Source of the DNA: a phage
Strand: one strand, 5' to 3'
Length of the DNA: 64,000 bases
Sequence record: PZ049338.1
The notes below the pieces were generated by a model. The model searched no databases, had not been told where the DNA came from, and saw nothing but the letters and a program-made list of their open reading frames with translations. Position numbers and translations under genes: made by a program. Shown here one piece after another: positions 2,758 through 47,935 of this stretch; the stretch's first letter is position 1; the number at the start of each line of letters is the position of its first letter.

Positions 2758-3378
2758 TTACGCAGCTTTCTTGCTTGCTGCCTTGCTGCGCAGTTCACGC
2801 ATATTTTCAGCGGTGAACAGATCGTTGATGGCTTTAATGGCCATGTTACGCAGTACATCGGTATTCGCGCCGTTCTCAATCGCTTGCTGCAATTGGGATT
2901 GGATAGACGAGCGGATTGATTTGGCGGACTTATCCAAATCATATGACTTAGCATCGCGCTCCTTAGTCTTATTGGTATGCAGCAGGGAAGAGTATTCCGC
3001 AGCTACGAAGGCTTTTACCGCGTTACGATATGCAACCTTCTGCTCCTTAGATACCGGAGCTTCACCTTTCGCCGCGTCATGTTTCCAGTTGGTTACGGTG
3101 TAGGCTTTTTCTTTCTTGTCTGCGGACGTGTTATCTTTATCCATTTTGATAACCAGTTTTGCCATAGTCGGCAGCAGGTCATTGATAACAGCACGTTGCA
3201 ATTGTGGGAAACGTTTAATTGCATTGATGAAAAATTCAATATTGGACGGATTGCAGGAGTCTTTACCCCAATAATCGGTCGCAACTACCTCAAAGGTTTT
3301 AACCAGACCGCGCGAACCTTCACGGAAGTTTTTAACGGATTCGATAATCAGCATTTGGGTAGCGTTCAATTTAGCCAT
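2758..3378 (-). CDS. hypothetical protein (206 aa), first sizeable gene of the leftward unit
   Basis: ORF track; GAGGAA SD 9 nt upstream of ATG at 3378. Confidence 0.6.
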   Translation of the reverse strand: MAKLNATQMLIIESVKNFREGSRGLVKTFEVVATDYWGKDSCNPSNIEFFINAIKRFPQLQRAVINDLLPTMAKLVIKMDKDNTSADKKEKAYTVTNWKHDAAKGEAPVSKEQKVAYRNAVKAFVAAEYSSLLHTNKTKERDAKSYDLDKSAKSIRSSIQSQLQQAIENGANTDVLRNMAIKAINDLFTAENMRELRSKAASKKAA

Positions 3379-3434
3379 GATAATATTCCTCGTTGTTTAC
3401 ATTGATTGAGTTATGAATCAGCACGATTCGATAA

Positions 3435-3466
3435 ATAGCCCACGCATCATGGGAATTATGGGCTAT
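3435..3466. other. inverted repeat (ATAGCCCA ... TGGGCTAT) just upstream of the first leftward gene
   Basis: 8-bp arms read directly; possible operator or RNA structure. Confidence 0.35.
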
Positions 3467-4238
3467 TCGAATCATCACTATTTGCGACTTGTCCAGTCGC
3501 CGGACTGATGCGCGCCTGATGGATACGGGGGCGAGTACCTTTTCACTTTACACATCAAATTTTACTCCCCGACTATCTGCGAATTAAAGATTAATCAGTG
3601 TTAATTGACGCAGTGACACGCCTCAAACGAGATAATCAACCATTGAAATCAATCAAGGCCGATTAAATAAAACTTGTCGTTGTTGTGCTACGTTGTCGCA
3701 TTCTTTATATAATCTTTCGGTAGTCTTAGTTGTGAGTAGGTAGAATTTTCATTCATTCGCTATCACTATTCGATTACGCGGCCTCTCGGCCTATCATCTT
3801 TTCAATCACTAGCCCACTTATTCTATTCAGTGAGATACCAAATTAACACTATACCGACGCTTAGATGTATAGATGATGTTCTAGTCTGGTTAAATCAGTC
3901 TTTACTTTGATGGCAACATGACACGTTGTGTAAACCGCTGGCACTTAAGCCGTCACGCATTGCGTTTTACGCCACCTTTTCAACCTTCCTTGCAAGCCTT
4001 GCGACTTTTAAGGTCGGGGCAAACTACTCCGGCTAAGTATTCAGTGTCTTATGTTTCCCACTGTTACCCGCTTTCGTCAATAAGCCGTAATTTAAAACCA
4101 TCCGTTAATCAGGTATGATTGCCACATTGTCGGGGGGAAGTATCCGACTGATGTTTACCGTTGGTTATACGGCGGGCTATTGCCCCTTAAGGTGCGGCCT
4201 ATGTGGTAGGCTGCCTTTGATGGGTAATGATTAACCTA

Positions 4239-4248
4239 TCCCATCTAT
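4239..4248 (+). promoter_or_regulatory. TCCCATCTAT motif copy 1
   Basis: exact 10-mer, repeated 4 times in the control region. Confidence 0.35.
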
Positions 4249-4269
4249 TTACTACTGGATAACTAATCT

Positions 4270-4292
4270 AGTTAATCCACATATATTAAGAG
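4270..4292 (-). promoter_or_regulatory. 23-bp repeated element, inverted copy (CTCTTAATATATGTGGATTAACT on minus strand)
   Basis: 1 mismatch to copies at 25156-25178 and 47913-47935. Confidence 0.4.
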
Positions 4293-4315
4293 ATAATCCC
4301 TTAATACGTCCTACT

Positions 4316-4351
4316 TAAAACATTCTAGGTTATCCCTTCCTACCTTGTCAA
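4316..4351 (-). promoter_or_regulatory. sigma70-type promoter P1 (leftward): -35 TTGACA 4351-4346, -10 TAGAAT 4327-4322, 18-nt spacer
   Basis: hexamers read directly; AT-rich upstream. Confidence 0.5.
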
Positions 4352-4426
4352 CCTTACTTAGAAAATTCTTTCTTCTGGTTGACTCACCTGATAGTTACTT
4401 GGCTATTCAGCTTCACTATCTGGTAT

Positions 4427-4463
4427 GTGGTAGATTATAGGTTTAACCTTTCTACCTTGTCAA
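4427..4463 (-). promoter_or_regulatory. sigma70-type promoter P2 (leftward): -35 TTGACA 4463-4458, -10 TATAAT 4439-4434, 18-nt spacer
   Basis: consensus hexamers; shares CTACCTTGTCAA context with P1; AT-rich UP-like region. Confidence 0.6.
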
Positions 4464-4683
4464 TAAGATATTTTAATTTATCTTGCTGACCTTTACTACC
4501 TATCAGGCTTTCGCGTTGTTGCTGCGTCGTCCTGATATGATTAACTATACGCAATCTTTTCAGATATGCAAACTAATATTTTAATTATTTTCTAACTTTC
4601 TTTCATCTCACTGATTTATAACGGATTATTTCTTGATATTCTTTCTTGATTCAGTGGATAAGATACGGGATACGGCTTATCTA

Positions 4684-4693
4684 TCCCATCTAT
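4684..4693 (+). promoter_or_regulatory. TCCCATCTAT motif copy 2
   Basis: exact 10-mer. Confidence 0.35.
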
Positions 4694-4894
4694 AGCGTCA
4701 CCTTTCCACCTGGACAAATTGGAACATCAATCACCTTATCTATTCCCTACCTTTCCAGCTCATAGATTCATGCCTGATTGATGATCTTTCTTGTGAGCTG
4801 GAAGCTAAGAGATAACACCGCATGAATTAAAACTAGATAAAGGGCACTAGATAGAAACATGCGGAACGTTATCCCATACGTCTTAATTGCTATT

Positions 4895-4932
4895 ACACGG
4901 AAGAAAGGAAAGGAAGAAAGGAAGAAAGGAAG
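4895..4932 (+). repeat. polypurine tract (GGAAGAAAGGAAAGGAAGAAAGGAAGAAAGGAAGA)
   Basis: read directly. Confidence 0.7.
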
Positions 4933-5040
4933 ATACACCATACGGATTAATGCTTATCAAACTATCGTCGGGTAACGGTGCAATGATTAAGATTGATGCG
5001 ACCAATGGTCGTGTTATGACCTGCGGTCATGCGTACCTAT

Positions 5041-5198
5041 TATCAAAGTCAACAATCAAACGATGATTATCAAAGACGATTATCAAACGATAACTATCAA
5101 AGACGATTATCAAACGATAACCATCAAAGGATAACTATCAAAGGATAACTATCAAAGGATAACTATCAAAGGATAACTATCAAAGGATAACTATCAAA
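5041..5198. repeat. tandem array, about 12 units of 13-14 bp with core TATCAAAG/C (5 perfect GGATAACTATCAAA units at 5129-5198)
   Basis: read directly; iteron-like. Confidence 0.85.
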
Positions 5199-5803
5199 GG
5201 CTGGCATTTTAAACACCGACGTTTTAGCCTCACAAAATAACGGGAAGAAATATAGCTCAGGATACTTACTATTAGTAAGAACATAACCATGCTGGTTATT
5301 ATTACCATGCTATCTATGCGATGGCTTATCATTAGGTAGCTAACTATAACATCGTGCATCATATTCCATTGGTATCATTAGATGACTAATCATGTGCGTG
5401 CATAGTATATCACTTGAGATAATAACGCATGAATACTATATCACTTCCCATTATCAGCGGAGGTATATTAATCCCGTGAACTAATAGCCAACTAATTACT
5501 TATGATATAGTTGCCAATGTTATTAATAGATGAGGTATGGTATCATTTGTATATTAATAATAAGCAAGCTATCTATTCACTGGATGCAATTACAGTATTG
5601 TGCTTCATCCAATAGGCTGTATAATCGTTGTTACATTGTTAACGGTATATGTGCCGACCCACTTCCCCCTTTTTAAAAGTTGTGTGCGCAGCTAGCCCCC
5701 TATACCACCGCGTGAGAGTATGAGAATGAGGATACCCTAACCAATTAATGGGTGAGAGTGATTGCCCGTGGGTATGACCTCCCATCAGACAGTACTCATG
5801 ACC

Positions 5804-5813
5804 TCCCATCTAT
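5804..5813 (+). promoter_or_regulatory. TCCCATCTAT motif copy 3 (GACCTCCCATC also at 5776-5786)
   Basis: exact 10-mer. Confidence 0.35.
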
Positions 5814-5872
5814 CAGTGTCAGTAGAGGCCGAAGGCCTTGGTCTTACCAAAGGTAAGTGACTTCCCATCTAT

Positions 5873-5882
5873 TTTCACTTTC
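5873..5882 (+). promoter_or_regulatory. TCCCATCTAT motif copy 4
   Basis: exact 10-mer. Confidence 0.35.
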
Positions 5883-5896
5883 TTTCAGTGTAAACA

Positions 5897-5920
5897 GTGT
5901 AAATCTGTAAGAAAATTGAA
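5897..5920 (+). promoter_or_regulatory. repeat TTCAGTGTAA-N-TCTGTAA copy 1 (candidate late promoter or packaging-related element)
   Basis: near-identical copy at 6168-6188; TAATCTGTAAG also at 12433-12443 upstream of capsid gene. Confidence 0.3.
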
Positions 5921-6167
5921 AATTTTGAACTAAAGTTCATGTACGAAGGAGATAGAGATTGATAAGAGATTCTTAAACAGTTTCTTATATATCTCCTTCT
6001 TATCCATTCTTATATATCCTCTCTTCTCTCCTCTATAAAAGCCCCTCTTATATTTAAAAATCCATAAACCAATTACGCTGAACAAGAAGAAAGTATAAAG
6101 GAGGTTATGACCTTCCATCTGATTGATAAGATGAGTACCCATCAACTATTTTAATCTTTTCAGTGTA

Positions 6168-6188
6168 AGTCTGTAATGTTTTCCATTT
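6168..6188 (+). promoter_or_regulatory. repeat TTCAGTGTAA-N-TCTGTAA copy 2
   Basis: see copy 1; about 135 bp upstream of first late gene. Confidence 0.3.
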
Positions 6189-6322
6189 ATCAGTGCTATA
6201 TGTAACTGTAGCATCTATAAGGTTTATGTAATTAATAAATAGATAGATGGGTGGATGGTGGGAACTACATTCGCTGGAAGCGAAACTATTGCTTCTGGCA
6301 ATTATTAATTGAAGGAGTGAAC

Positions 6323-6709
6323 ATGTCTGACAATAACGAATTACTTGATTCCATTGTTGAAGGTCGCTCCGTCAAGACTGGACAGTTTGTGAAGGGTAAT
6401 ACTCAAGGTAAGGGCCGTCCGAAAGGTAGCCGAAACAAAATGACTCAACGAATGTTGAATCGTGTTGCTGAACGAAGTGAAGATGGTTTGTCTATGGAAG
6501 AAATCATGATGGATATCGCCCAAGACCCTCAAATGCCAGCAGAGCTTCGCTTTAAAGCAGCAGCTAAAGTTTCTGACCTCGTTTATCCTAAAGCATCTTC
6601 TGTTGAAGTTAAGATGGACGATAAAGAAAGCATGACTAAAGAACAGATTGATGCTCGCCTTAAAGCTTTGCTTAGTGGTGGCCATACAACTGAAGACACT
6701 GAGGACTAA
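6323..6709 (+). CDS. putative DNA-binding protein / terminase small subunit candidate (128 aa) with AT-hook-like GRPKGSR motif
   Basis: start moved to internal ATG 6323 (GAAGGAG SD); sits 2 genes upstream of large terminase; function by position only. Confidence 0.4.
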   Translation: MSDNNELLDSIVEGRSVKTGQFVKGNTQGKGRPKGSRNKMTQRMLNRVAERSEDGLSMEEIMMDIAQDPQMPAELRFKAAAKVSDLVYPKASSVEVKMDDKESMTKEQIDARLKALLSGGHTTEDTED

Positions 6710-6948: not shown

Positions 6949-7276
6949 ATTCCTTGCCAGCCAGCGAGGTTGACTTTCGTCGGGTAAGTCGTGAAAGAAC
7001 CCGACCGCGAATTCAAAGTCTAGCTAGGGTGACAAGAGTATGACAGGCTGTCCTAGATAAGTGTCGGTACTCAACTAGATGTTGTATTGGATGTTAGGTA
7101 AGTCAAGAGAGACAAGCCACGGTCGGGGTCGTCCACGTTAAACATTAAAACCCCGCCCCTCGAATACACGACTGAAGATTTTCCAAATGACTAAAGGTTC
7201 AGAAAATTTTGCAGTTGCCGCTTTGCGGATTAGGGTGAGAGCCCTCGAAAGGTTTATAGTATACACGGAGGTAAGG

Positions 7277-8761
7277 ATGGATTTTAATGAAATCGACTTA
7301 GACTCCCTTCCGGAACATATCAAGTGGGAAATTATTGACTTACTAGAGGAAAGGGAAAGGGTCATTAAATATAATCGGATTAACGAATTCGAACCCTACG
7401 AGTTCCAAAAGAATTTTTATTCTGCAAGTGCTAAATTCAAAAGACGCTTCCTTTGTGCGGCTAACCGAGTTGGTAAGTCTTACTCTGAAGCGGTAGAAGT
7501 GTTTTATCATTTGTCAGGTCTGTACCCTGAATGGTGGGACGGACACAGATTTAAGAAACCAATCCTCTTATGGGCTGTTGGTATCACCGGTGACTCAACT
7601 CGAAAGGTGTTGCAGAAGGAGTTGTTTGGTACACCGATGGGCAAAGACCAAGATGCATTGGGAACAGGCGCTATCCCTCGTGACCTGATTGACATTGAGA
7701 ACATCGAGAAAGACGGTAACATCATCAAAATCGCAAAGGTTAAGCATCATGATAAAAATGGTGACTTTGATGGTTGGTCTACTATCGAATTCCGCTCAAC
7801 TCAACAGGGTGAGCACGTACTGATGGGTGCGACTGTAGATTATATATGGTTAGATGAAGAAGACCCGTTCAAGTCTATGGAAATCTATGCACAGTGCGTT
7901 ACTCGTACTGCTACTACTGGTGGTTTGATTACCATCACCGCTACTCCTGAGAACGGTTTGACGAAACTGGTAGACCTGTTCATGAAAGACACGTCAGGTT
8001 ACTTATATTTTCAGAATGCGACATGGGATGATGCTCCCCACTTAGATGAAGAAACTAAAAAAGAGTTGTTAGCATCTATTCCGACATGGCAGCACGAAAT
8101 GCGAAGCAGGGGGATTCCAATGATGGGCGAAGGTTTGATTTACGATATTGCAGAGTCTTCTATTATTACAGAGCCGATTGAGATTCCATCTCACTGGCGT
8201 AGACTTGCAGCAGTTGATATTGGTATCAGTCACGATACTGCGGTTGTATGGACAGCTTACGATGCTGCTACTGACTGTATCTATGTATATGACTGCTACT
8301 CAGCAGATGCGGGCGTTCCTGCTATGCACGCTACAGCTATTAATGCTCGTGGCAACTGGATTCCTGTTATTCTTCCACACGATGCTGATAACACTGAACG
8401 TGGTTCAGGTCGTAGTGTCGCGTCTTATTATGCAGAGGCTGGTGTCAACGTGATGCCTGAGACGTTCTATAATCCACTGGATTGGACGGGTAAGAAGAAT
8501 AACTTCGTAGAACCGGGCATTATGGAAATCCTTCAAAGGATGAAGACTGGTCGCTTTAAAGTGTTTAGCACTTGTGGCAAGTTCTTCGAAGAAATGCGTC
8601 GTTATCACCGTAAAGATGGCAAGATTGTCAAAGAATTCGATGATACAATGGACGCAGCACGATATTCAGCACTCTCAGTAATTGGACGTGGTGTAAGTGC
8701 AGGTGAAGCAAGTGCTGGCTACAATGCAGCATTCAATGATAACTGGAATTACAATTACTAA
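7277..8761 (+). CDS. terL: terminase large subunit (ATPase/nuclease)
   Basis: start moved to ATG 7277 (GGAGG SD); Walker A-like AANRVGKS; about 495 aa; position upstream of portal. Confidence 0.8.
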   Translation: MDFNEIDLDSLPEHIKWEIIDLLEERERVIKYNRINEFEPYEFQKNFYSASAKFKRRFLCAANRVGKSYSEAVEVFYHLSGLYPEWWDGHRFKKPILLWAVGITGDSTRKVLQKELFGTPMGKDQDALGTGAIPRDLIDIENIEKDGNIIKIAKVKHHDKNGDFDGWSTIEFRSTQQGEHVLMGATVDYIWLDEEDPFKSMEIYAQCVTRTATTGGLITITATPENGLTKLVDLFMKDTSGYLYFQNATWDDAPHLDEETKKELLASIPTWQHEMRSRGIPMMGEGLIYDIAESSIITEPIEIPSHWRRLAAVDIGISHDTAVVWTAYDAATDCIYVYDCYSADAGVPAMHATAINARGNWIPVILPHDADNTERGSGRSVASYYAEAGVNVMPETFYNPLDWTGKKNNFVEPGIMEILQRMKTGRFKVFSTCGKFFEEMRRYHRKDGKIVKEFDDTMDAARYSALSVIGRGVSAGEASAGYNAAFNDNWNYNY

Positions 8762-25114: not shown

Positions 25115-25155
25115 TTAAAAGTTTGTAAGATAATTAGAAATGTTAAGTAGAATTA

Positions 25156-25178
25156 CTCTTTATATATGTGGATTAACT
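25156..25178 (+). promoter_or_regulatory. 23-bp repeated element CTCTTTATATATGTGGATTAACT (copy A)
   Basis: identical to 47913-47935; inverted near-copy at 4270-4292. Confidence 0.45.
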
Positions 25179-31476: not shown

Positions 31477-32046
31477 TTAACTCTGGAAGTTTACTGATTC
31501 TCTGTCAATGTTAGCGACTAATTGACTTCGAATACGATGGAGACTGACGTAAATGTTATTTGAAGACATGCCATACTTATTGGCAACATCTTTAGTCGTG
31601 AGGTTCTTCAGGTAAACATCGGTGAACAATTCACGTTCTGATTCCTTAAGAGTCTCAAAAGCTCTCTGAACAAACGAGGAAGCTTCATCGGCTAGTAACT
31701 CACGAACAGGGTCAGTTAACCCATTATCATGGCATTCAAATTCGAGGACATTATCGTACATCTCCGTATCAACTCTGTCGAACTCTCGGCGTACATAACC
31801 ATAACGAACATTGTTCGCAATAGTACCTATAACACCGCCTAACTTATCCCACTGGATTCTGTCCCAATACTGCCAAATCCTTAGCAGAGTTTCTTGAGCC
31901 AAATCTTCAGCCAGATGGTAATCTTTTTCCATGTAGTAGAATTGTTTCTGGAGAGGTTTCCAGAACTCTTCGTACAACTCTTCAAAAGTATATGTTTCTC
32001 GTTTTGGAGTAGGGGCACTAATTCTCTTAGCCATCATACATTCCAT
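31477..32046 (-). CDS. ECF-type sigma factor (regions 2 and 4)
   Basis: DLAQETLLRIWQYWDRI (region 2-like) and LTTKDVANKYGMSSNNIYVSLHRIRSQL (region 4 HTH). Confidence 0.7.
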   Translation of the reverse strand: MECMMAKRISAPTPKRETYTFEELYEEFWKPLQKQFYYMEKDYHLAEDLAQETLLRIWQYWDRIQWDKLGGVIGTIANNVRYGYVRREFDRVDTEMYDNVLEFECHDNGLTDPVRELLADEASSFVQRAFETLKESERELFTDVYLKNLTTKDVANKYGMSSNNIYVSLHRIRSQLVANIDRESVNFQS

Positions 32047-32275: not shown

Positions 32276-33049
32276 TTAGAACGGGCAATCGTCGTCAAAA
32301 TCCAGACCTTCATCTGGTTTATTGGTCGGCTTATTGTTACCGTACTTCTGTTCTTCACGAGTAGTGGTATTCTTTGGCTTTTCACCATCACCACTGTCGG
32401 CAATTGGTTCTTTGCCTGCATACGGAATGTGTTGTGCATCTTTAGCTTCTGCAATCACATCACGCTGGAATTTGTAAAGCTTGGAGTATGCTTGCAGCAT
32501 CTCAGGGGTATCAATGTAAGGGTTATATGCTACCAGTTCTGAACGTGCTTCACCAACTTTGGACTTGTTTCGAGAAGAAACAGCACCAATGGAAGTCACT
32601 TTGTTACGCTTCACACCTTTCTTCGTGGTATAAGAACCAACACCGATTGAAACAACTTCATTCAGGCGTTCCATGAACCACTCGAGATTACGAGGAACTT
32701 CGGTAATAGTTGGGTCAATTGCTTTACAGAGGTCGAATACACCACCACGTTTAGCACCGGGGAAGAGGTAGAAGTCTTTGAACTGACAGGAAGGGCGAGG
32801 GTCGATAGGCTTACCGACTTTATCTTCTTCACCTTCGTATGTGCGACCAGTTGCGTCAACGTCAATAAGTTCAAAAGCAATGGTACACTTGAATGCGGGA
32901 GCTTTCGCTTCACCTTGCCAATCTGGTTGAGGCTGAACACCTAAGCCAACAAAGCGAACGATACGTGCGTCGAATACATCATCTTCAATCGCGTCGTATA
33001 CAGTGAAAGATTTTTTAGAAGTGGAAGTAGATGGAATAGCAGTAGTCAT
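32276..33049 (-). CDS. ssb: single-stranded DNA-binding protein with host-SSB-like acidic tail (…DFDDDCPF)
   Basis: C-terminus matches recalled E. coli SSB tip DFDDDIPF. Confidence 0.65.
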   Translation of the reverse strand: MTTAIPSTSTSKKSFTVYDAIEDDVFDARIVRFVGLGVQPQPDWQGEAKAPAFKCTIAFELIDVDATGRTYEGEEDKVGKPIDPRPSCQFKDFYLFPGAKRGGVFDLCKAIDPTITEVPRNLEWFMERLNEVVSIGVGSYTTKKGVKRNKVTSIGAVSSRNKSKVGEARSELVAYNPYIDTPEMLQAYSKLYKFQRDVIAEAKDAQHIPYAGKEPIADSGDGEKPKNTTTREEQKYGNNKPTNKPDEGLDFDDDCPF

Positions 33050-40032: not shown

Positions 40033-40482
40033 TCAGCGACCAGAGCGTACAAAGTATGCCAGCTTGTCGATGGCAGCTACTAATTCTTGCAAGATGCTAA
40101 CAGTCACATCATCCTCTGTATCAAACAGACGAGCCACATGACCAGTTATTGTTTCCAGAGTTTCGACCATATCAGACAACATCTCTGAACTGTCGTAGCT
40201 GTCAACACCTTCACTGAACCAGCGAACTTCATGATAATACCCTGCCGTTGATTTGACAGGATGCTGTAGGCCACGTAGCCGCTCAGCAACAATATCAGAC
40301 CATTCATCAGCAACAGTATCAATATCTTCGAACAGTTTATGGAGACTTCCAAAGTTGGCTCCGGTTACGTTCCAATGATAATTCTCTGCCTTGATGGACA
40401 GTAATTTGAGGTTGGCAACCACTGGATTCAATGGGTGCAGATTATCTTCACCACTTTGACGTGACGGTCTTGGAGATAACAT
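40033..40482 (-). CDS. Dps-like ferritin-fold protein
   Basis: YHWNVTGANFGSLHKLFEDI and DIVAERLRGL align by eye with recalled E. coli Dps (HWNMRGANFIAVHEML, DTMAERAVQLGG). Confidence 0.6.
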   Translation of the reverse strand: MLSPRPSRQSGEDNLHPLNPVVANLKLLSIKAENYHWNVTGANFGSLHKLFEDIDTVADEWSDIVAERLRGLQHPVKSTAGYYHEVRWFSEGVDSYDSSEMLSDMVETLETITGHVARLFDTEDDVTVSILQELVAAIDKLAYFVRSGR

Positions 40483-41138
40483 TACTCAGTTTCCTTAATA
40501 GTTGCTTTCAAGGCCGACCAAGCGACCGGATAAAGGTCAGTCATGATTGCATCAAGTTGCTGTGCAAACAAACGAACCTCGTATTGAGCATGAGTGCTCG
40601 AACGTTGACGGTATACTTCAAACCAACCATACAGTGAACCAGTCCATACCCATTCTGTAACCATCCCTTGCGGGAGTACAAAGCGAGCCTGCTCTGGTGC
40701 AATGAACTTAATCAGCTTATCGTAGGCAAGTAATGCTGCTTCATATGCGTAATTATACAACACAAGAGCTTCATATTTCTTAACACCTTCAAGAAGTACA
40801 CCACCGCCATCATGCAAGTTATCAGGTCGTGCAAAGATTTCCTTAGGAATGAACACTTCGACATTACCATCTTTATATCGACGGCTCATTTCGTTCCAAG
40901 AAAATCCAACCTGATGCTTACCTAGCTGGCGAGCGATTGCGATTGGGGCTTTACAGCGAAGGGTCACTGTTGCGTGCCGGAATGGGGTTACATGACGTTC
41001 ACGAGCTAAGAACTTGACCAAGCGAACATCTCGCTCATTCAACTCACCTTCTCGTGTTACACCATAAGATACTCGTGCTGCGTTAACAACTGAAGTATCA
41101 TCACCCATTAAATCTACTAATTGCGCTTCAATAGTCAT
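40482..41138 (-). CDS. thyX: ThyX-like flavin-dependent thymidylate synthase homologue (signature appears divergent)
   Basis: ARQLGKHQVGFSWNEMSRRY resembles ThyX motif region, but canonical RHR seems replaced by KHQ. Confidence 0.6.
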   Translation of the reverse strand: MTIEAQLVDLMGDDTSVVNAARVSYGVTREGELNERDVRLVKFLARERHVTPFRHATVTLRCKAPIAIARQLGKHQVGFSWNEMSRRYKDGNVEVFIPKEIFARPDNLHDGGGVLLEGVKKYEALVLYNYAYEAALLAYDKLIKFIAPEQARFVLPQGMVTEWVWTGSLYGWFEVYRQRSSTHAQYEVRLFAQQLDAIMTDLYPVAWSALKATIKETE

Positions 41139-42429: not shown

Positions 42430-42719
42430 TAATCAAGACCTCGCACTGTAGAGAGGATGAAATTACGCAGCATGTCTTCAGTCTGCATCCCTGTTTTGAA
42501 ACCTACTGGCTTCTTGTTTTCATCAAACACGATGATGGTTGGGACACCACGGATGCCAAAGGTACGAGCTTCTTCGCGTACTCCGTCGTCTTCGATGCTA
42601 CGGGATTCAAAAGTAAATCCCTCTTCTTCCAGTTCATCTTGAACTTTCTTGAAGATAGGCTCGATTGCTTTGCAAGGAGCACAGGAAGTACCAAAGTATT
42701 TAATTACAGAGTAAGCCAT
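42429..42719 (-). CDS. thioredoxin
   Basis: CxxC active site SCAPC in thioredoxin-sized (96 aa) protein. Confidence 0.75.
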   Translation of the reverse strand: MAYSVIKYFGTSCAPCKAIEPIFKKVQDELEEEGFTFESRSIEDDGVREEARTFGIRGVPTIIVFDENKKPVGFKTGMQTEDMLRNFILSTVRGLD

Positions 42720-43477
42720 TATTCACCACCTTCGTTGTCTAATTCCATTGCTTTAACCACTGCCTTACAGAAGCCGCTTCGAACGATATCGTCAGAAGTA
42801 CCTTCAACAACAGCAGCATAGTCGCCCAGAGCGTGACGGTTGATAAAATCAATCGCCCAATCCAGACCATTTTCACCACCCATATCATTCTGCTCGGAAT
42901 CCCCGATACAGAACAGCTTAGAGTTCTCACCCAAGCGAGTCATGATTGAGTACATTTCATCAGGTTTGGTATTCTGAGATTCATCCACAATGACCACAGC
43001 GTTCTCGAAAGAACGACCACGAACATATTCCAGTGGTACGAATTCAATGTTACCAAGACCCATCTGGCACTCATAGAAGCCATGACCGTAACGACCTTTG
43101 ATTACATCTACCATAGGCATCAGATACGGTTCAAACTTCTCTTTCAGAGTGCCGGGCAGGAGACCAAGAGATTTACCCATACCAACCGAAGGTCGGCTCA
43201 GTACAATCTTCTGAATCTTGTTCTGCTTAAGCCAATCTGCGGCTTGACTCATGAGTACAAAAGTCTTACCGCAACCAGCAGGAGCGTCAACAAACACAAC
43301 CTGAGCTTCCATCATGCTAGTATGAAGTTCACGTTGGAACTCATTCTTAGGGATGATAGGCTTGATAATGTTTGCTGTCTCAAACTCACGACGAGCGTGT
43401 TGGCTATTACGACGAACAGTTTCTTCGCGCAGTGCTTCACGACGTAATTCACGACGACTAGGCTTAAGTTTCTTCAT
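42719..43477 (-). CDS. phoH: PhoH-like ATPase
   Basis: Walker A DAPAGCGKTF; overall PhoH-like pattern. Confidence 0.75.
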   Translation of the reverse strand: MKKLKPSRRELRREALREETVRRNSQHARREFETANIIKPIIPKNEFQRELHTSMMEAQVVFVDAPAGCGKTFVLMSQAADWLKQNKIQKIVLSRPSVGMGKSLGLLPGTLKEKFEPYLMPMVDVIKGRYGHGFYECQMGLGNIEFVPLEYVRGRSFENAVVIVDESQNTKPDEMYSIMTRLGENSKLFCIGDSEQNDMGGENGLDWAIDFINRHALGDYAAVVEGTSDDIVRSGFCKAVVKAMELDNEGGE

Positions 43478-44081
43478 TATTCAACTCCTCAGTGTGACCA
43501 GAGCCAGCATATGCTTGAGTAGCACCCTGCTGACCGTTGTAGTTACCTTTAACAGCGTAAGAGTCGTTACCAACGTCTTCGTGTTCAAAGAATACCATCT
43601 GACCAATGCGCATACCGGGTTTGATAAGGAGTCGGTGATACTTGTTCATATTCTTGAACTCCATAGTAAGCTGTGCGCCATGCCAACCGGCATCTGCCCA
43701 ACCTGCCATCATGTGTTCAAGGAAGCAACGAGCCACTGTAGAACGTAATACAAACTGACTGGAGATAGTATTTGGTAAGTTAAATGTCTCAACAGAGTGA
43801 GCCAAGAAACACTGACCCGGTTCGATAATCAAACCAGTCTCAGGGATAATCTGTTTGATGAACTTAGGAGATTGCTTTGCAGCAATATCAATCGGTTCAG
43901 AATGAACACCCGGAACAGCTTCAGCCATACCAGAAAGGTCTTGGTATTGCCATGCAGGGGCTTCGACCAGAATCTCGTTACCAATACGGATATCAATACT
44001 CGCTGAGTTTACGTTCTCATGCAGAGCGTCAATAACATTTTCATCAATCAGTTGGTGCAATCGTGTAGAAGAGAGTAACAT
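43464..44081 (-). CDS. dcd: dCTP deaminase
   Basis: SIDIRIGNE, RSTVARCFL, KPGMRIGQMVFFE, YNGQQGA align with recalled E. coli Dcd. Confidence 0.75.
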   Translation of the reverse strand: MLLSSTRLHQLIDENVIDALHENVNSASIDIRIGNEILVEAPAWQYQDLSGMAEAVPGVHSEPIDIAAKQSPKFIKQIIPETGLIIEPGQCFLAHSVETFNLPNTISSQFVLRSTVARCFLEHMMAGWADAGWHGAQLTMEFKNMNKYHRLLIKPGMRIGQMVFFEHEDVGNDSYAVKGNYNGQQGATQAYAGSGHTEELNNEET

Positions 44082-46635: not shown

Positions 46636-47310
46636 TTACAGAGTGTCATAGTAGTCTGCGCGATTATGCAGACACCAGTCACCCGACTCAACACGGTTAC
46701 TGTCGCCTTGGTCTTCATCAATGTGATAAATCCAAGCCTTTGCGAAGGAACCATCATCCAGTTGGATTTCAACCTGCGTACGGTTATAGAAACCATTCTC
46801 AGGGTCACAGGCACTGTACCCTTCCAGCATGTCGTATGCACCAGTCAGACCTTCCAGAGGTGCTTCAAATACATCAACAACAACCTGCTTGCCAGACTTG
46901 TTAGCCTTAAGGTTCACGGAAGGGAAGTAGGAGCCACCGTAGCGATATAAATCGAACTGGTCTACAGTCACACCCTTACTTACAAATTCACCGCCGCCAC
47001 GAGCGTTTACGTGGAAATTCTGCATGTTGCGACGCAGAGAGCCATAAGTTGCGATGAATACTTTACCGTCTGAAGGAATTACTAAGTTCTTTGACATTAC
47101 TTGTCCTGTTTTAGGTTGTAGATAATATTTAACTTCGACAAATCGCCATGTGTTCTGGAGGTTCTCTGCCATTTCTTTTGCTTCTGGGTAAGTTAAGCCA
47201 CAGCCAAGCTGATAACCTTCCTCACCCTTACTCATGCGACCAATCAGTAAATAACGAACTTCATGGTCACCTGTTAGTGGTTCTTTAATTGAGAGCTTCA
47301 TCTTATACAC
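46636..47310 (-). CDS. gamma-glutamyl cyclotransferase-like (AIG2/GGCT fold) domain protein
   Basis: FIATYGSLRR ... DMLEGY ... YNRTQV fits GGCT pattern. Confidence 0.55.
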   Translation of the reverse strand: MYKMKLSIKEPLTGDHEVRYLLIGRMSKGEEGYQLGCGLTYPEAKEMAENLQNTWRFVEVKYYLQPKTGQVMSKNLVIPSDGKVFIATYGSLRRNMQNFHVNARGGGEFVSKGVTVDQFDLYRYGGSYFPSVNLKANKSGKQVVVDVFEAPLEGLTGAYDMLEGYSACDPENGFYNRTQVEIQLDDGSFAKAWIYHIDEDQGDSNRVESGDWCLHNRADYYDTL

Positions 47311-47366: not shown

Positions 47367-47903
47367 TTACCAGAGCTTATTAAGAGCCAGATTATTAGTA
47401 ATCACTGGTGTGCTTTCGTAATCATCCAGAGATGTTGGGCCCATACTAATAGCACCATATCCAGTTACGTGAACACTTACACGGGTCATCTGGTCGAAGA
47501 ATTCCTTCATCTGAGACGGTTCTGTGATGTTCTTTCCAGCAACACCAAGAACCTGTACACGCTGACCAGAGGAGCGCAGACCCTTCTTAGTGACCACTGC
47601 CGTAACTGTCTGACCAACAACAGTGGGCTTAGTTAATACCTCAAAGAACACACCGGATATGTCAGTTACACCCTGTTCCATATGCATTGTTGCATAGTTA
47701 ACTTTGTAGGTGTTTGGAACTTCATATACACGGGTAGATTTGAAAGTAGTACCAATGTAGTTATCTGCATTGAAGTCACGGGAACGGCTACGACGTTCAG
47801 CCTCAATGAGAAGTGATTGGTAATAACCTTCCAGTATTTCACCAACACCTTTACGAGTTGTACTTAACCCGATTACTCGGGAATATCCAATAATTAAGAA
47901 CAT
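47367..47903 (-). CDS. hypothetical protein (178 aa)
   Basis: ORF track; 23-bp repeated element immediately upstream. Confidence 0.5.
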   Translation of the reverse strand: MFLIIGYSRVIGLSTTRKGVGEILEGYYQSLLIEAERRSRSRDFNADNYIGTTFKSTRVYEVPNTYKVNYATMHMEQGVTDISGVFFEVLTKPTVVGQTVTAVVTKKGLRSSGQRVQVLGVAGKNITEPSQMKEFFDQMTRVSVHVTGYGAISMGPTSLDDYESTPVITNNLALNKLW

Positions 47904-47912
47904 TAAGAATCT

Positions 47913-47935
47913 CTCTTTATATATGTGGATTAACT
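47913..47935 (+). promoter_or_regulatory. 23-bp repeated element CTCTTTATATATGTGGATTAACT (copy B)
   Basis: identical to 25156-25178; 10 nt from start codon of 47367-47903. Confidence 0.45.

Follow-up and report, generated by a model that had tools for sequence, protein, structure and literature searches.

The central control region of a 7-11-like podophage: a structured early leader RNA and a predicted genome end

For phage 7-11, a long non-coding region between divergent gene blocks has been described together with its early and late promoters. Here we analyze a region of this kind, positions 3379-6322 of a 64,000-nucleotide (nt) stretch of phage DNA (record PZ049338.1), hereafter called the window. 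Our main finding is that this region probably (about 70%) serves a 7-11-like podophage both for central control and as a genome-end region, with a structured early leader RNA for which antitermination is the favoured role. The leader, which at ~0.94 kb makes up about a third of the region, is strongly supported by the covariation of its bases as a large structured non-coding RNA, and it has no Rfam match; further right, a conserved element of 90 bp predicts one genome end near position 5693.

The control region is already known in outline from phage 7-11. The long intergenic region between the divergent clusters of that phage was noted by Guzina and Djordjevic in 2015 (PMC4331800). Lavysh et al. 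(2022) then located by primer extension a pair of early sigma70 promoters 5' of 7-11 gene 151, and derived the consensus GTAAtg-N16-aCTA of the late promoters used by the phage sigma factor gp47, among them P1 upstream of gene 1 (PMC8948821). The same authors pointed out that two early promoters must serve almost half of the 7-11 genome, and considered an undefined antitermination strategy very likely, leaving its mechanism open (PMC8948821). Neither PMC4331800 nor PMC8948821 describes for 7-11 a leader RNA structure, a terminal repeat or terminal-repeat-like element, or ATGAC boxes; the leader RNA and the repeat-end-like element go beyond both. An earlier note, made from the letters of the window alone, had proposed a divergent control region in which leftward early promoters are separated from the start of a rightward late operon, and this arrangement is indeed homologous to the 7-11 region (PMC4331800, PMC8948821).

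In a sequence search, the closest records to 3379-6322 were only the Salmonella phages PKM.Hi.22.6 (Hi226) and PKM.Lu.22.1 (Lu221), at ~92% identity, which were isolated as plasmid-dependent phages (PMC10782986). A more sensitive search added 7-11, SE131, SeKF_80 and pSal-SNUABM-01 (the 7-11 group) and the Aeromonas phage BUCT695, for the right-hand part only. Judged by these likenesses, the source phage is a Grimontviridae (7-11-like) podophage, as are Hi226 and Lu221.

We propose the following course of events. Two strong host sigma70 promoters (4322-4463) would fire leftward early in infection, and the first ~0.94 kb of the early transcript (4315 down to 3379), which is untranslated, would fold into a conserved multi-helix RNA that opens with a degenerate BoxA-like block and closes with a long hairpin just 5' of the first early gene. 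This leader would act in cis on RNA polymerase or on the transcript, permitting processive antitermination through the terminator-like hairpins of the early operon, while its 3' hairpin would be a processing or stability site. To the right of the promoters, a fast-evolving spacer of ~1.2 kb (purine tract, private 14-bp array, AT-rich repeats) leads to the conserved element, where one physical end of the packaged DNA is predicted and from which a terminal repeat would extend leftward. Beyond the element, genus-specific ATGAC boxes and two phage-sigma promoters would start the late packaging and structural operon.

Structure and possible function of the early leader RNA

The two tandem leftward sigma70-like promoters of the earlier note are present (Table 1), with matches to 12 and 11 of the 12 consensus positions. 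Both fit the sigma70 criterion (TTGACA/TATAAT, spacer of 16-18 nt) with 18-nt spacers, and in a colinear alignment they occupy the position homologous to the 7-11 promoters validated by primer extension upstream of gene 151. In 7-11, the early promoters likewise stand ~1.15 kb from gp151.

Downstream of these promoters, the leaders of the window group and of the 7-11 group align in blocks, and the hairpin stems between the blocks differ wholly in sequence while their complementarity is kept. Stem H1, for example, occurs as GAUGGG/CCCAUC, AGCGG/CCGCU, UCUGACA/UGUCAGA and AUCAG/CUGAU, and stem H5 as GUCGG/CCGAC, GAAGC/GCUUC, GAGCA/UGCUC and GGCUA/UAGCC. A hairpin with a GNRA loop covaries too, from GGCC-GAGA-GGCC to GGUU-GGAA-AACC or GCC-GAAA-GGU. 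The minimum free energy (MFE) z-score of the leader is -3.5. For the 5' domain, RNAalifold with seven sequences gave compensatory changes in 12 of 28 pairs; in its four local helices 94% of the cells were paired, compared to 30-36% with slid partners, and 12 pairs had changed on both sides, compared to 0-4, values that none of 500 shuffles reached. The whole leader was then scored on an alignment (A4) of 12 sequences, including five new metagenomic variants, one of which has a diverged 5' domain. Among 111 predicted pairs 46 were compensatory (covariation term -16.4), 96.4% of the cells were paired against 33-42% with slid partners, and the covariation score was 0.415 against 0.055-0.10; again, 0/500 shuffles reached the observed values. 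As the structure was taken from the very alignment on which it is scored, and as the sequences represent few lineages, the compensatory counts are generous, yet the gap to the slid controls remains large.

No known family accounts for this RNA. Rfam 15 gave no match at the gathering score in the 64-kb window and nothing relevant at E<=5 in 3300-6400, and the 7-11 and SE131 leaders had no match at E<=1. A covariance model built from the H5-H6 part of the leader only (R1) matched Moazamivirus-like phages and none of GAP52, BUCT695, Privateervirus, Lahexavirus, APT65 and phiEco32; we found the leader RNA only in the Moazamivirus-like clade. Near its 3' end, the long interrupted hairpin of Table 1 keeps its pairs in every sequence, four of them with compensatory changes. 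Compared to RNase III sites, which are near-continuous double-stranded RNA of ~20 bp, it has ~17 bp, a 3-nt bulge and covariation. Hairpins processed by RNase III occur in the early mRNAs of T7, and the hairpin is a candidate site for RNase III cleavage or for stabilising the transcript.

What might such a leader do? Terminator-like hairpins are present on the minus strand within the promoter-proximal early genes (2743-2721, 1757-1736 and 1214-1198), and a promoter scan revealed no other strong sigma70 promoter near them; read-through would therefore be needed. The first of these hairpins lies directly 3' of the first early gene, and one of the three has a CUUCGG loop. We favour a cis-acting role of the leader in processive antitermination, either assisted by Nus factors through a degenerate BoxA or by the RNA alone, in the manner of HK022 put.

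The first of these variants draws on the most conserved block of the leader, identical or nearly so in 12/12 leaders, which reads as RNA UCUCUUA(A/U)UAUAUGUGGAUU(A/U)ACU. BoxA, the site of NusB/NusE, has the consensus GYTCTTTAANA (PMC5725501). At the equivalent position, ~+16 to +25 from a strong sigma70 early promoter, exact BoxA sequences are found in Csa009 and P59 (Privateervirus) and in BUCT695 (Libingvirus), and they are also present in the early regions of LAh8 (Lahexavirus) and phiEco32, at more variable distances from the promoters. The Csa009 sequence, GCTCTTTAACAATATGGATAACCTAG, is visibly alignable to the leader block of the window. BoxA matches were recorded at L010 minus 3511 and 3332, L009 minus 3479 and 3302, L139 + 747 and 458, L011 minus 3520 and 3030, and L008 minus 274 and 165; our literature search found no paper linking phiEco32 with boxA.

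Several observations weigh against this role. The exact motif GYTCTTTAANA has no match anywhere in the 64-kb window, where the leader block reads TCTCTTAATAT, which makes the loading of Nus factors doubtful. Copies of the block on the opposite strand, described below, are unexplained by simple cis-antitermination. Moreover, R1, which covers H5-H6 only, found nothing in the sister genera; if this holds for the whole RNA, then some members of the family can do without it. It is conceivable, and we offer it as a tentative and rather doubtful extension, that the early leader of Moazamivirus-like phages (~0.9-1.15 kb) constitutes a novel class of large, structured RNAs in phages, replacing the BoxA/Nus module of the sister genera. 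It might render the host polymerase resistant to terminators over tens of kb or have another role in host takeover (for example, the sequestration of host factors), its 5' block also pairing with distant sites of the same transcript.

Table 1. Features of the control region and its flanks (window positions; in the element, a slash stands for the predicted cut)
Feature	Position	Strand	Remarks
First early gene, homolog of 7-11 gp151	2758..3378	-	Open reading frame of 206 amino acids; left flank
Non-coding early leader RNA	3379..4315	-	~0.94 kb; conserved secondary structure (covariation, MFE, no open reading frame)
Long interrupted hairpin	3425..3473	-	~17 bp plus bulge; ~45 nt upstream of first early gene
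Leader hairpin H5	4129..4148	-	Conserved C-rich loop, followed by conserved AAUGUGGYAAUC; five stem sequences, all complementary
Most conserved leader block, UCUCUUAAUAUAUGUGGAUUAACU	4270..4293	-	~+22 to +45 of the proximal early transcript; degenerate BoxA-like
Proximal early sigma70 promoter	4322..4351	-	TTGACA-18-TAGAAT, 11/12
Distal early sigma70 promoter	4434..4463	-	TTGACA-18-TATAAT, 12/12; conserved in Hi226 and Lu221
Purine tract	4899..4933	+	Uninterrupted, 35 nt; flanked by conserved CATACG..ATTAAT motifs
14-bp tandem array	5051..5200	.	10.9 copies; private minisatellite expansion
Conserved non-coding element, GACCCACTTCCCCCTTTTT-N19-GCT/AGCCCCCTATACCACCGCGTG..AATGAGGATACCCT	5655..5745	+	90 bp; predicted right boundary of repeat ~5693-5696
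Three ATGACYYCCCATC boxes	5774..5872	+	5774, 5798, 5857; candidate protein-binding iterons
Late promoter-like site a	5907..5932	+	GTAAGA-N16-ACTA, two mismatches in -35; aligns with 7-11 position 1369
Pyrimidine-rich tract, TCTTATATA repeats	5980..6050	+	Within the transcript from site a
Two further ATGAC boxes	6107..6146	+	6107, 6131; directly upstream of late promoter b
Late promoter b	6173..6198	+	GTAATG-N16-GCTA, exact gp47 consensus match; aligns with 7-11 position 1637
Conserved G-rich motif, GATGGGTGGATGGTGGGAACTACA	6246..6269	+	5' untranslated region of the DUF5681-like gene
First late gene, DUF5681-like	6323..6709	+	128 amino acids; right flank; directly 5' of the large terminase gene

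The conserved 90-bp element and the genome ends

The conservation of the 90-bp element far exceeds that of its surroundings. It is 79% identical in BUCT695, and it is recognisable in Privateervirus, Lahexavirus, Aquaneticvirus and Grimontviridae, 465-670 nt upstream of the DUF5681 gene. Its left half holds CTTCCCCCTTTTT at 5663-5675, followed after 19 nt by GCT/AG; the corresponding spacing is 22 nt in phiEco32, 21 nt in Csa009 and 20 nt in BUCT695. The Kuravirus phages phiEco32 and SU10 have direct terminal repeats of 193 bp (PMC4281155). The left half of the element matches the right end of the phiEco32 repeat, ...CTCCCCCTTTTTAGGAAACGCGCGGCGAGCGGCT/AGG, as well as the description of the SU10 repeat end, which contains CCCTTTTTTA (PMC4281155). 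In both phages the repeat occupies the homologous place, 5' of the DUF5681 and large terminase genes, as predicted here, and its right end has C-run/T-run motifs ~21 nt from a blunt end, cut in phiEco32 within GCT/AG. If the left half of the element is a homolog of this repeat end, the right boundary of the repeat would be near 5693-5696. Only the last ~35 nt of the phiEco32/SU10 repeat resemble the window; its interior and left boundary are not recognisable. The suggestion of the earlier note that the region may contain the physical termini thus gains indirect support from the element, the position of the end being predicted by homology.

This prediction has evidence against it as well. Only a short stretch resembles the phiEco32 repeat end (a C/T run of 10 nt, and GCTAG at 19-22 nt), and GCTAG is lacking in 7-11 and pSal. 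A weight-matrix scan of the window and its relatives detected no second or inverted copy of the end motif and no left boundary. Published PhageTerm analyses assigned no standard class: for SeKF_80 they gave 'redundant ends', several termini being preferred, and for Privateer 'novel end types'; a literature search on Lahexavirus termini found nothing. The repeat could be short, as in phiEco32, or could span ~1.4 kb, early promoters included.

The element could instead be a recognition or regulatory site (for the terminase, pac-like for its small subunit, or a promoter), with the ends elsewhere or with a repeat of ~1.4 kb that runs from the leader block to the element and contains the early promoters. 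We hold this to be possible but doubtful. Conservation does run ~50 nt past the predicted cut, the element holds a palindrome, GGATATCC, and some genera have a -10-like TATAAT; the PhageTerm outcomes for SeKF_80 and Privateer point the same way, as does the fact that the 7-11 and GAP52 records open within ~12 nt of the leader block and the SE131 record 46 nt left of the element. However, position, orientation, C5T5 motif and the 19-22-nt spacing to GCT/AG all match the experimentally defined phiEco32/SU10 end, and record boundaries may be arbitrary: the metagenome contig L019 and SE131 run uninterrupted across the 7-11 boundary.

Record junctions were located at L138 (end of the GAP52 record), L002/L003 (7-11) and L022/L021 (SE131). 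The start of a near-full-length metagenome contig of 77,266 bp (L146) falls 197 nt to the left of the element, and the starts of metagenome contigs are at about 4961, 5465 and 5569. Such boundaries of records and contigs are mutually inconsistent, and we rejected them as markers of the physical ends.

With the repeat-end-like element, a specific prediction can be made of where Grimontviridae genomes end; two published PhageTerm runs left these ends unclassified. Knowing these ends matters for correct genome records and for phage engineering.

Complementary copies, the spacer and coding potential

Two more copies of the 24-nt leader block (CTCTTTATATATGTGGATTAACT) are present in the window, on the opposite strand, at 25155-25178 (+) and 47912-47935 (+). 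The former lies at a convergent junction, beyond the terminator of the late operon, where 7-11 also has a copy; the latter coincides with the ribosome-binding region of the leftward gene 47367-47903, so that the leader is complementary to the mRNA of that gene at 23 of 24 positions. Phage 7-11 has three block copies, one at the same convergent junction and one upstream of gp139 (loci L085 2407-2422 and L043 8449-8464). The reverse complement of the block contains a DnaA-box-like TTAATCCACA. Most matches to the leader block in a pattern scan were due to chance.

Such copies raise the question of whether the leader is an antisense regulator acting in trans or at long range, its 5' block pairing with leftward transcripts and blocking their translation or triggering their cleavage. 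The P1/P7 c4 and P4 CI RNAs, small processed antisense RNAs derived from leaders, serve immunity in temperate elements in this way; as with them, part of the leader is complementary to later sites of its own transcription unit, among them a ribosome-binding region. The complementarity to 47367-47903 and to 25155-25178, the three copies in 7-11, and a chance expectation of ~1e-5 for such a 20-mer match (calculated from the size of the window) all speak for this idea. We nevertheless consider it unlikely. The genes next to the complementary copies in this phage and in 7-11 share no homology and have no Pfam domains, so that the putative targets of the two phages are not conserved; unlike the c4 and CI systems, the phage is lytic and the RNA large. 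The equivalent block in the sister genera is a canonical promoter-adjacent BoxA, and the repeats may therefore reflect the shared ancestry of promoter-proximal modules or a site that acts as DNA. Finally, a single block of 24 nt leaves ~900 nt of further conserved structure unaccounted for, and cis-acting antitermination remains our preferred role for the leader.

Between the promoters and the conserved element, the spacer (4471-5654) is the fastest-evolving part of the region: compared to close relatives it has 7-9% substitutions and many indels, against 1.6-2.9% substitutions in the flanking genes and 3.3% in the 90-bp element. The polypurine tract of the earlier note is present there, at a measured length of 35 nt rather than the 38 first given; it is identical in Hi226 and Lu221, and its equivalent in 7-11 is purine-rich but interrupted. 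The 14-bp tandem array is also as described, with 10.9 copies at 5051-5200. A three-way alignment shows that the entire array is missing from Hi226 and Lu221, and the number of units is 0 in 10 metagenomic contigs that encode an identical DUF5681-like protein.

An origin of replication with the array as its iterons, an idea that the regular copies, a partial DnaA-box core (TTATCC) in their reverse complement and the adjoining AT-rich DNA might encourage, is very improbable: being absent from these 12 close relatives, which share >85-95% identity on both sides of it, the array is private and not a conserved iteron origin. An equivalent array is lacking in 7-11, there is no initiator gene next to the array, and nothing points to an origin elsewhere in the region. 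The origin proposed in the earlier note is thus not supported, as far as it depends on the array. A decayed tRNA array was another candidate for the identity of the region, and is ruled out by a tRNA search that found no tRNA gene in the 64-kb window.

Coding potential was examined for all open reading frames (ORFs) of at least 57 amino acids (aa) in the region, by comparison with the 92%-identical Hi226 and Lu221. All five, namely 3918-4118 (+), 5180-5362 (-), 5930-6145 (-), 4768-4941 (-) and 4887-5066 (+), are broken in relatives, four of them through a stop or frameshift in one or both phages: 3918-4118, 66 aa long, has stops in both, 5180-5362 and 4768-4941 are disrupted in both alike, and 5930-6145 is broken in Lu221 only. 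As for 4887-5066, its TTG start is lost and the array deletion cuts into it, with no internal stop in the part compared. The earlier statement that the region holds no credible ORF is therefore borne out, with no ORF conserved in Hi226 and Lu221.

Small coding sequences (CDSs) are annotated in this region in the GenBank records of Hi226, Lu221, pSal-SNUABM-01 and SeKF_80; they are not conserved and are probably spurious (L001 5094-5246; L004 4543-4662 and 5071-5211; L020 2224-2448; L140 1427-2198; L021 2245). For SE131, the annotation places the start of the first CDS 96 nt ahead of the conserved start codon.

For the ~0.95 kb between promoters and first early gene, which the earlier note had left open to small proteins or a non-coding RNA, covariation argues for the RNA, and the small-protein option, to which the small ORFs annotated in equivalent regions of relatives lend some colour, is hardly tenable, as the transcribed minus strand has no ORF of at least 30 aa in 3479-4312, the sole plus-strand ORF of 66 aa has stop codons in both close relatives, and leader substitutions track base-pairing rather than codon structure.

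Late promoters, flanking genes and comparison with known systems

To the right of the 90-bp element, the two CAGTGTAA(A/G)TCTGTAA elements of the earlier note are found at 5895 and 6161. They supply the -35 elements of two putative late phage-sigma promoters, whose matches start at 5907 and 6173, and are not terminus or origin motifs. Late promoter b, one of three exact consensus matches in 64 kb, is the probable homolog of the mapped 7-11 promoter P1; both sites are conserved in 7-11, pSal, Hi226 and Lu221. The motif tgTGATGTtata, which Guzina predicted for the 7-11 phage sigma, is superseded by the experimentally derived GTAAtg-N16-aCTA. A gene for a phage sigma factor is present at 31477-32046 (-), with 189 aa and matches to Sigma70_r2 and Sigma70_r4_2 above the cut-offs. 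It lies downstream of ORF 32276-33049 (-), itself preceded by a late-promoter-like GTAAGA-N16-ACTA at 33148-33123 (-), the same positive-feedback arrangement as P48/gene 48/gene 47 of 7-11. A palindrome, TGAACTAAAGTTCA (5925-5938), overlaps the -10/+1 of site a; Proteus phage P59 has TGTACTAACGTACA at the same place (L009 ~4650-4665), where the symmetry is kept and the sequence changed.

The short repeated box seen earlier, CCCATCTAT, has six copies in the 64-kb window compared to 0.38 expected, and five of the six are in this region. The longer form, ATGACYYCCCATC, has five copies (Table 1) and occurs nowhere else in the window. At the same place, BUCT695, APT65, LAh6 and 7-11 have box types of their own genus, with four boxes at a period of 26-27 nt upstream of P1 in 7-11, and the boxes were not found at the other late promoters of the phage. 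They look like binding sites for a co-evolving protein, as candidates judged by sequence; the protein might be the DUF5681-like product, if this is a small terminase subunit. The pyrimidine-rich repeats noted before (about 5980-6050) are present too, and in 7-11 and BUCT695 their CT-rich composition is conserved while the sequence is not. The G-rich motif GATGGGTGGATGGTGGGAACTACA, which 7-11, pSal and BUCT695 conserve in full and LAh6 in part, could be a G-quadruplex or a protein site. Between late promoter b and the DUF5681-like start codon, a 32-nt insertion (6269-6300) forms a terminator-like hairpin (6273-6299), which is private to this genome, being absent from Hi226, Lu221, 7-11 and pSal.

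Concerning the flanking genes, the first early gene has ~75% DNA identity to the start of 7-11 gp151 and belongs to phrog_34693, of unknown function. Comparison of its product and of the DUF5681-like protein with Pfam and PHROGs assigned no function to either. The large terminase gene is at 7187-8761. Four genes of the leftward cluster, all on the minus strand, encode ThyX (40482-41138), a PhoH-like ATPase (42719-43477), a dCTP deaminase-like protein (43464-44081) and a gamma-glutamyl cyclotransferase-like (GGACT) protein (46636-47310). In IMG/VR, neither the first early gene, as query of a protein-guided search, nor the 90-bp element, as a DNA pattern, returned anything but 7-11 and LAh8, and a metagenome scan recovered one 7-11-like contig.

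If cis-antitermination applies, a promoter-proximal leader RNA would be a concrete and testable candidate for the mechanism left open in 7-11, as would the BoxA of the sister genera. The RNA belongs to a lytic phage whose close relatives attack bacteria with conjugative resistance plasmids. Non-coding RNAs that are both large and structured are rare, and new biology has tended to emerge with each discovery.

Among known antiterminators, the put RNAs of HK022 act in cis; they are ~70 nt long and form two stem-loops. Like them, the leader is a structured RNA placed right after early promoters, and by analogy it could modify RNA polymerase in cis without a phage protein. Unlike them, it is ~900 nt long with more than 15 helices, so that the likeness is limited to position and general logic. 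As in the BoxA/Nus systems (rrn, lambda nut), a conserved U/C-rich block follows just after the early promoters of a very long operon, and it shares CUCUUAA with lambda nutL. Compared to the BoxA consensus, however, the block has U for G at position 1 and one U fewer, and unlike those systems no N-like protein or boxB was identified in this phage.

The closest parallel is 7-11 itself. From this phage the region differs in that identity is only ~60-80% and confined to blocks, in that two early promoters stand 112 nt apart where 7-11 has three candidates, and in that no tRNA gene is present in the window, whereas in 7-11 five tRNA genes lie between gene 2 and that of the large terminase. Like 7-11, it has an intergenic region between leftward early and rightward packaging and structural clusters, two strong sigma70 early promoters, a leader of ~1 kb that precedes the first early gene, and, 5' of the DUF5681 gene, one or more late promoters of the gp47 type, GTAAtg-N16-aCTA; the conserved blocks of the two phages are colinear.

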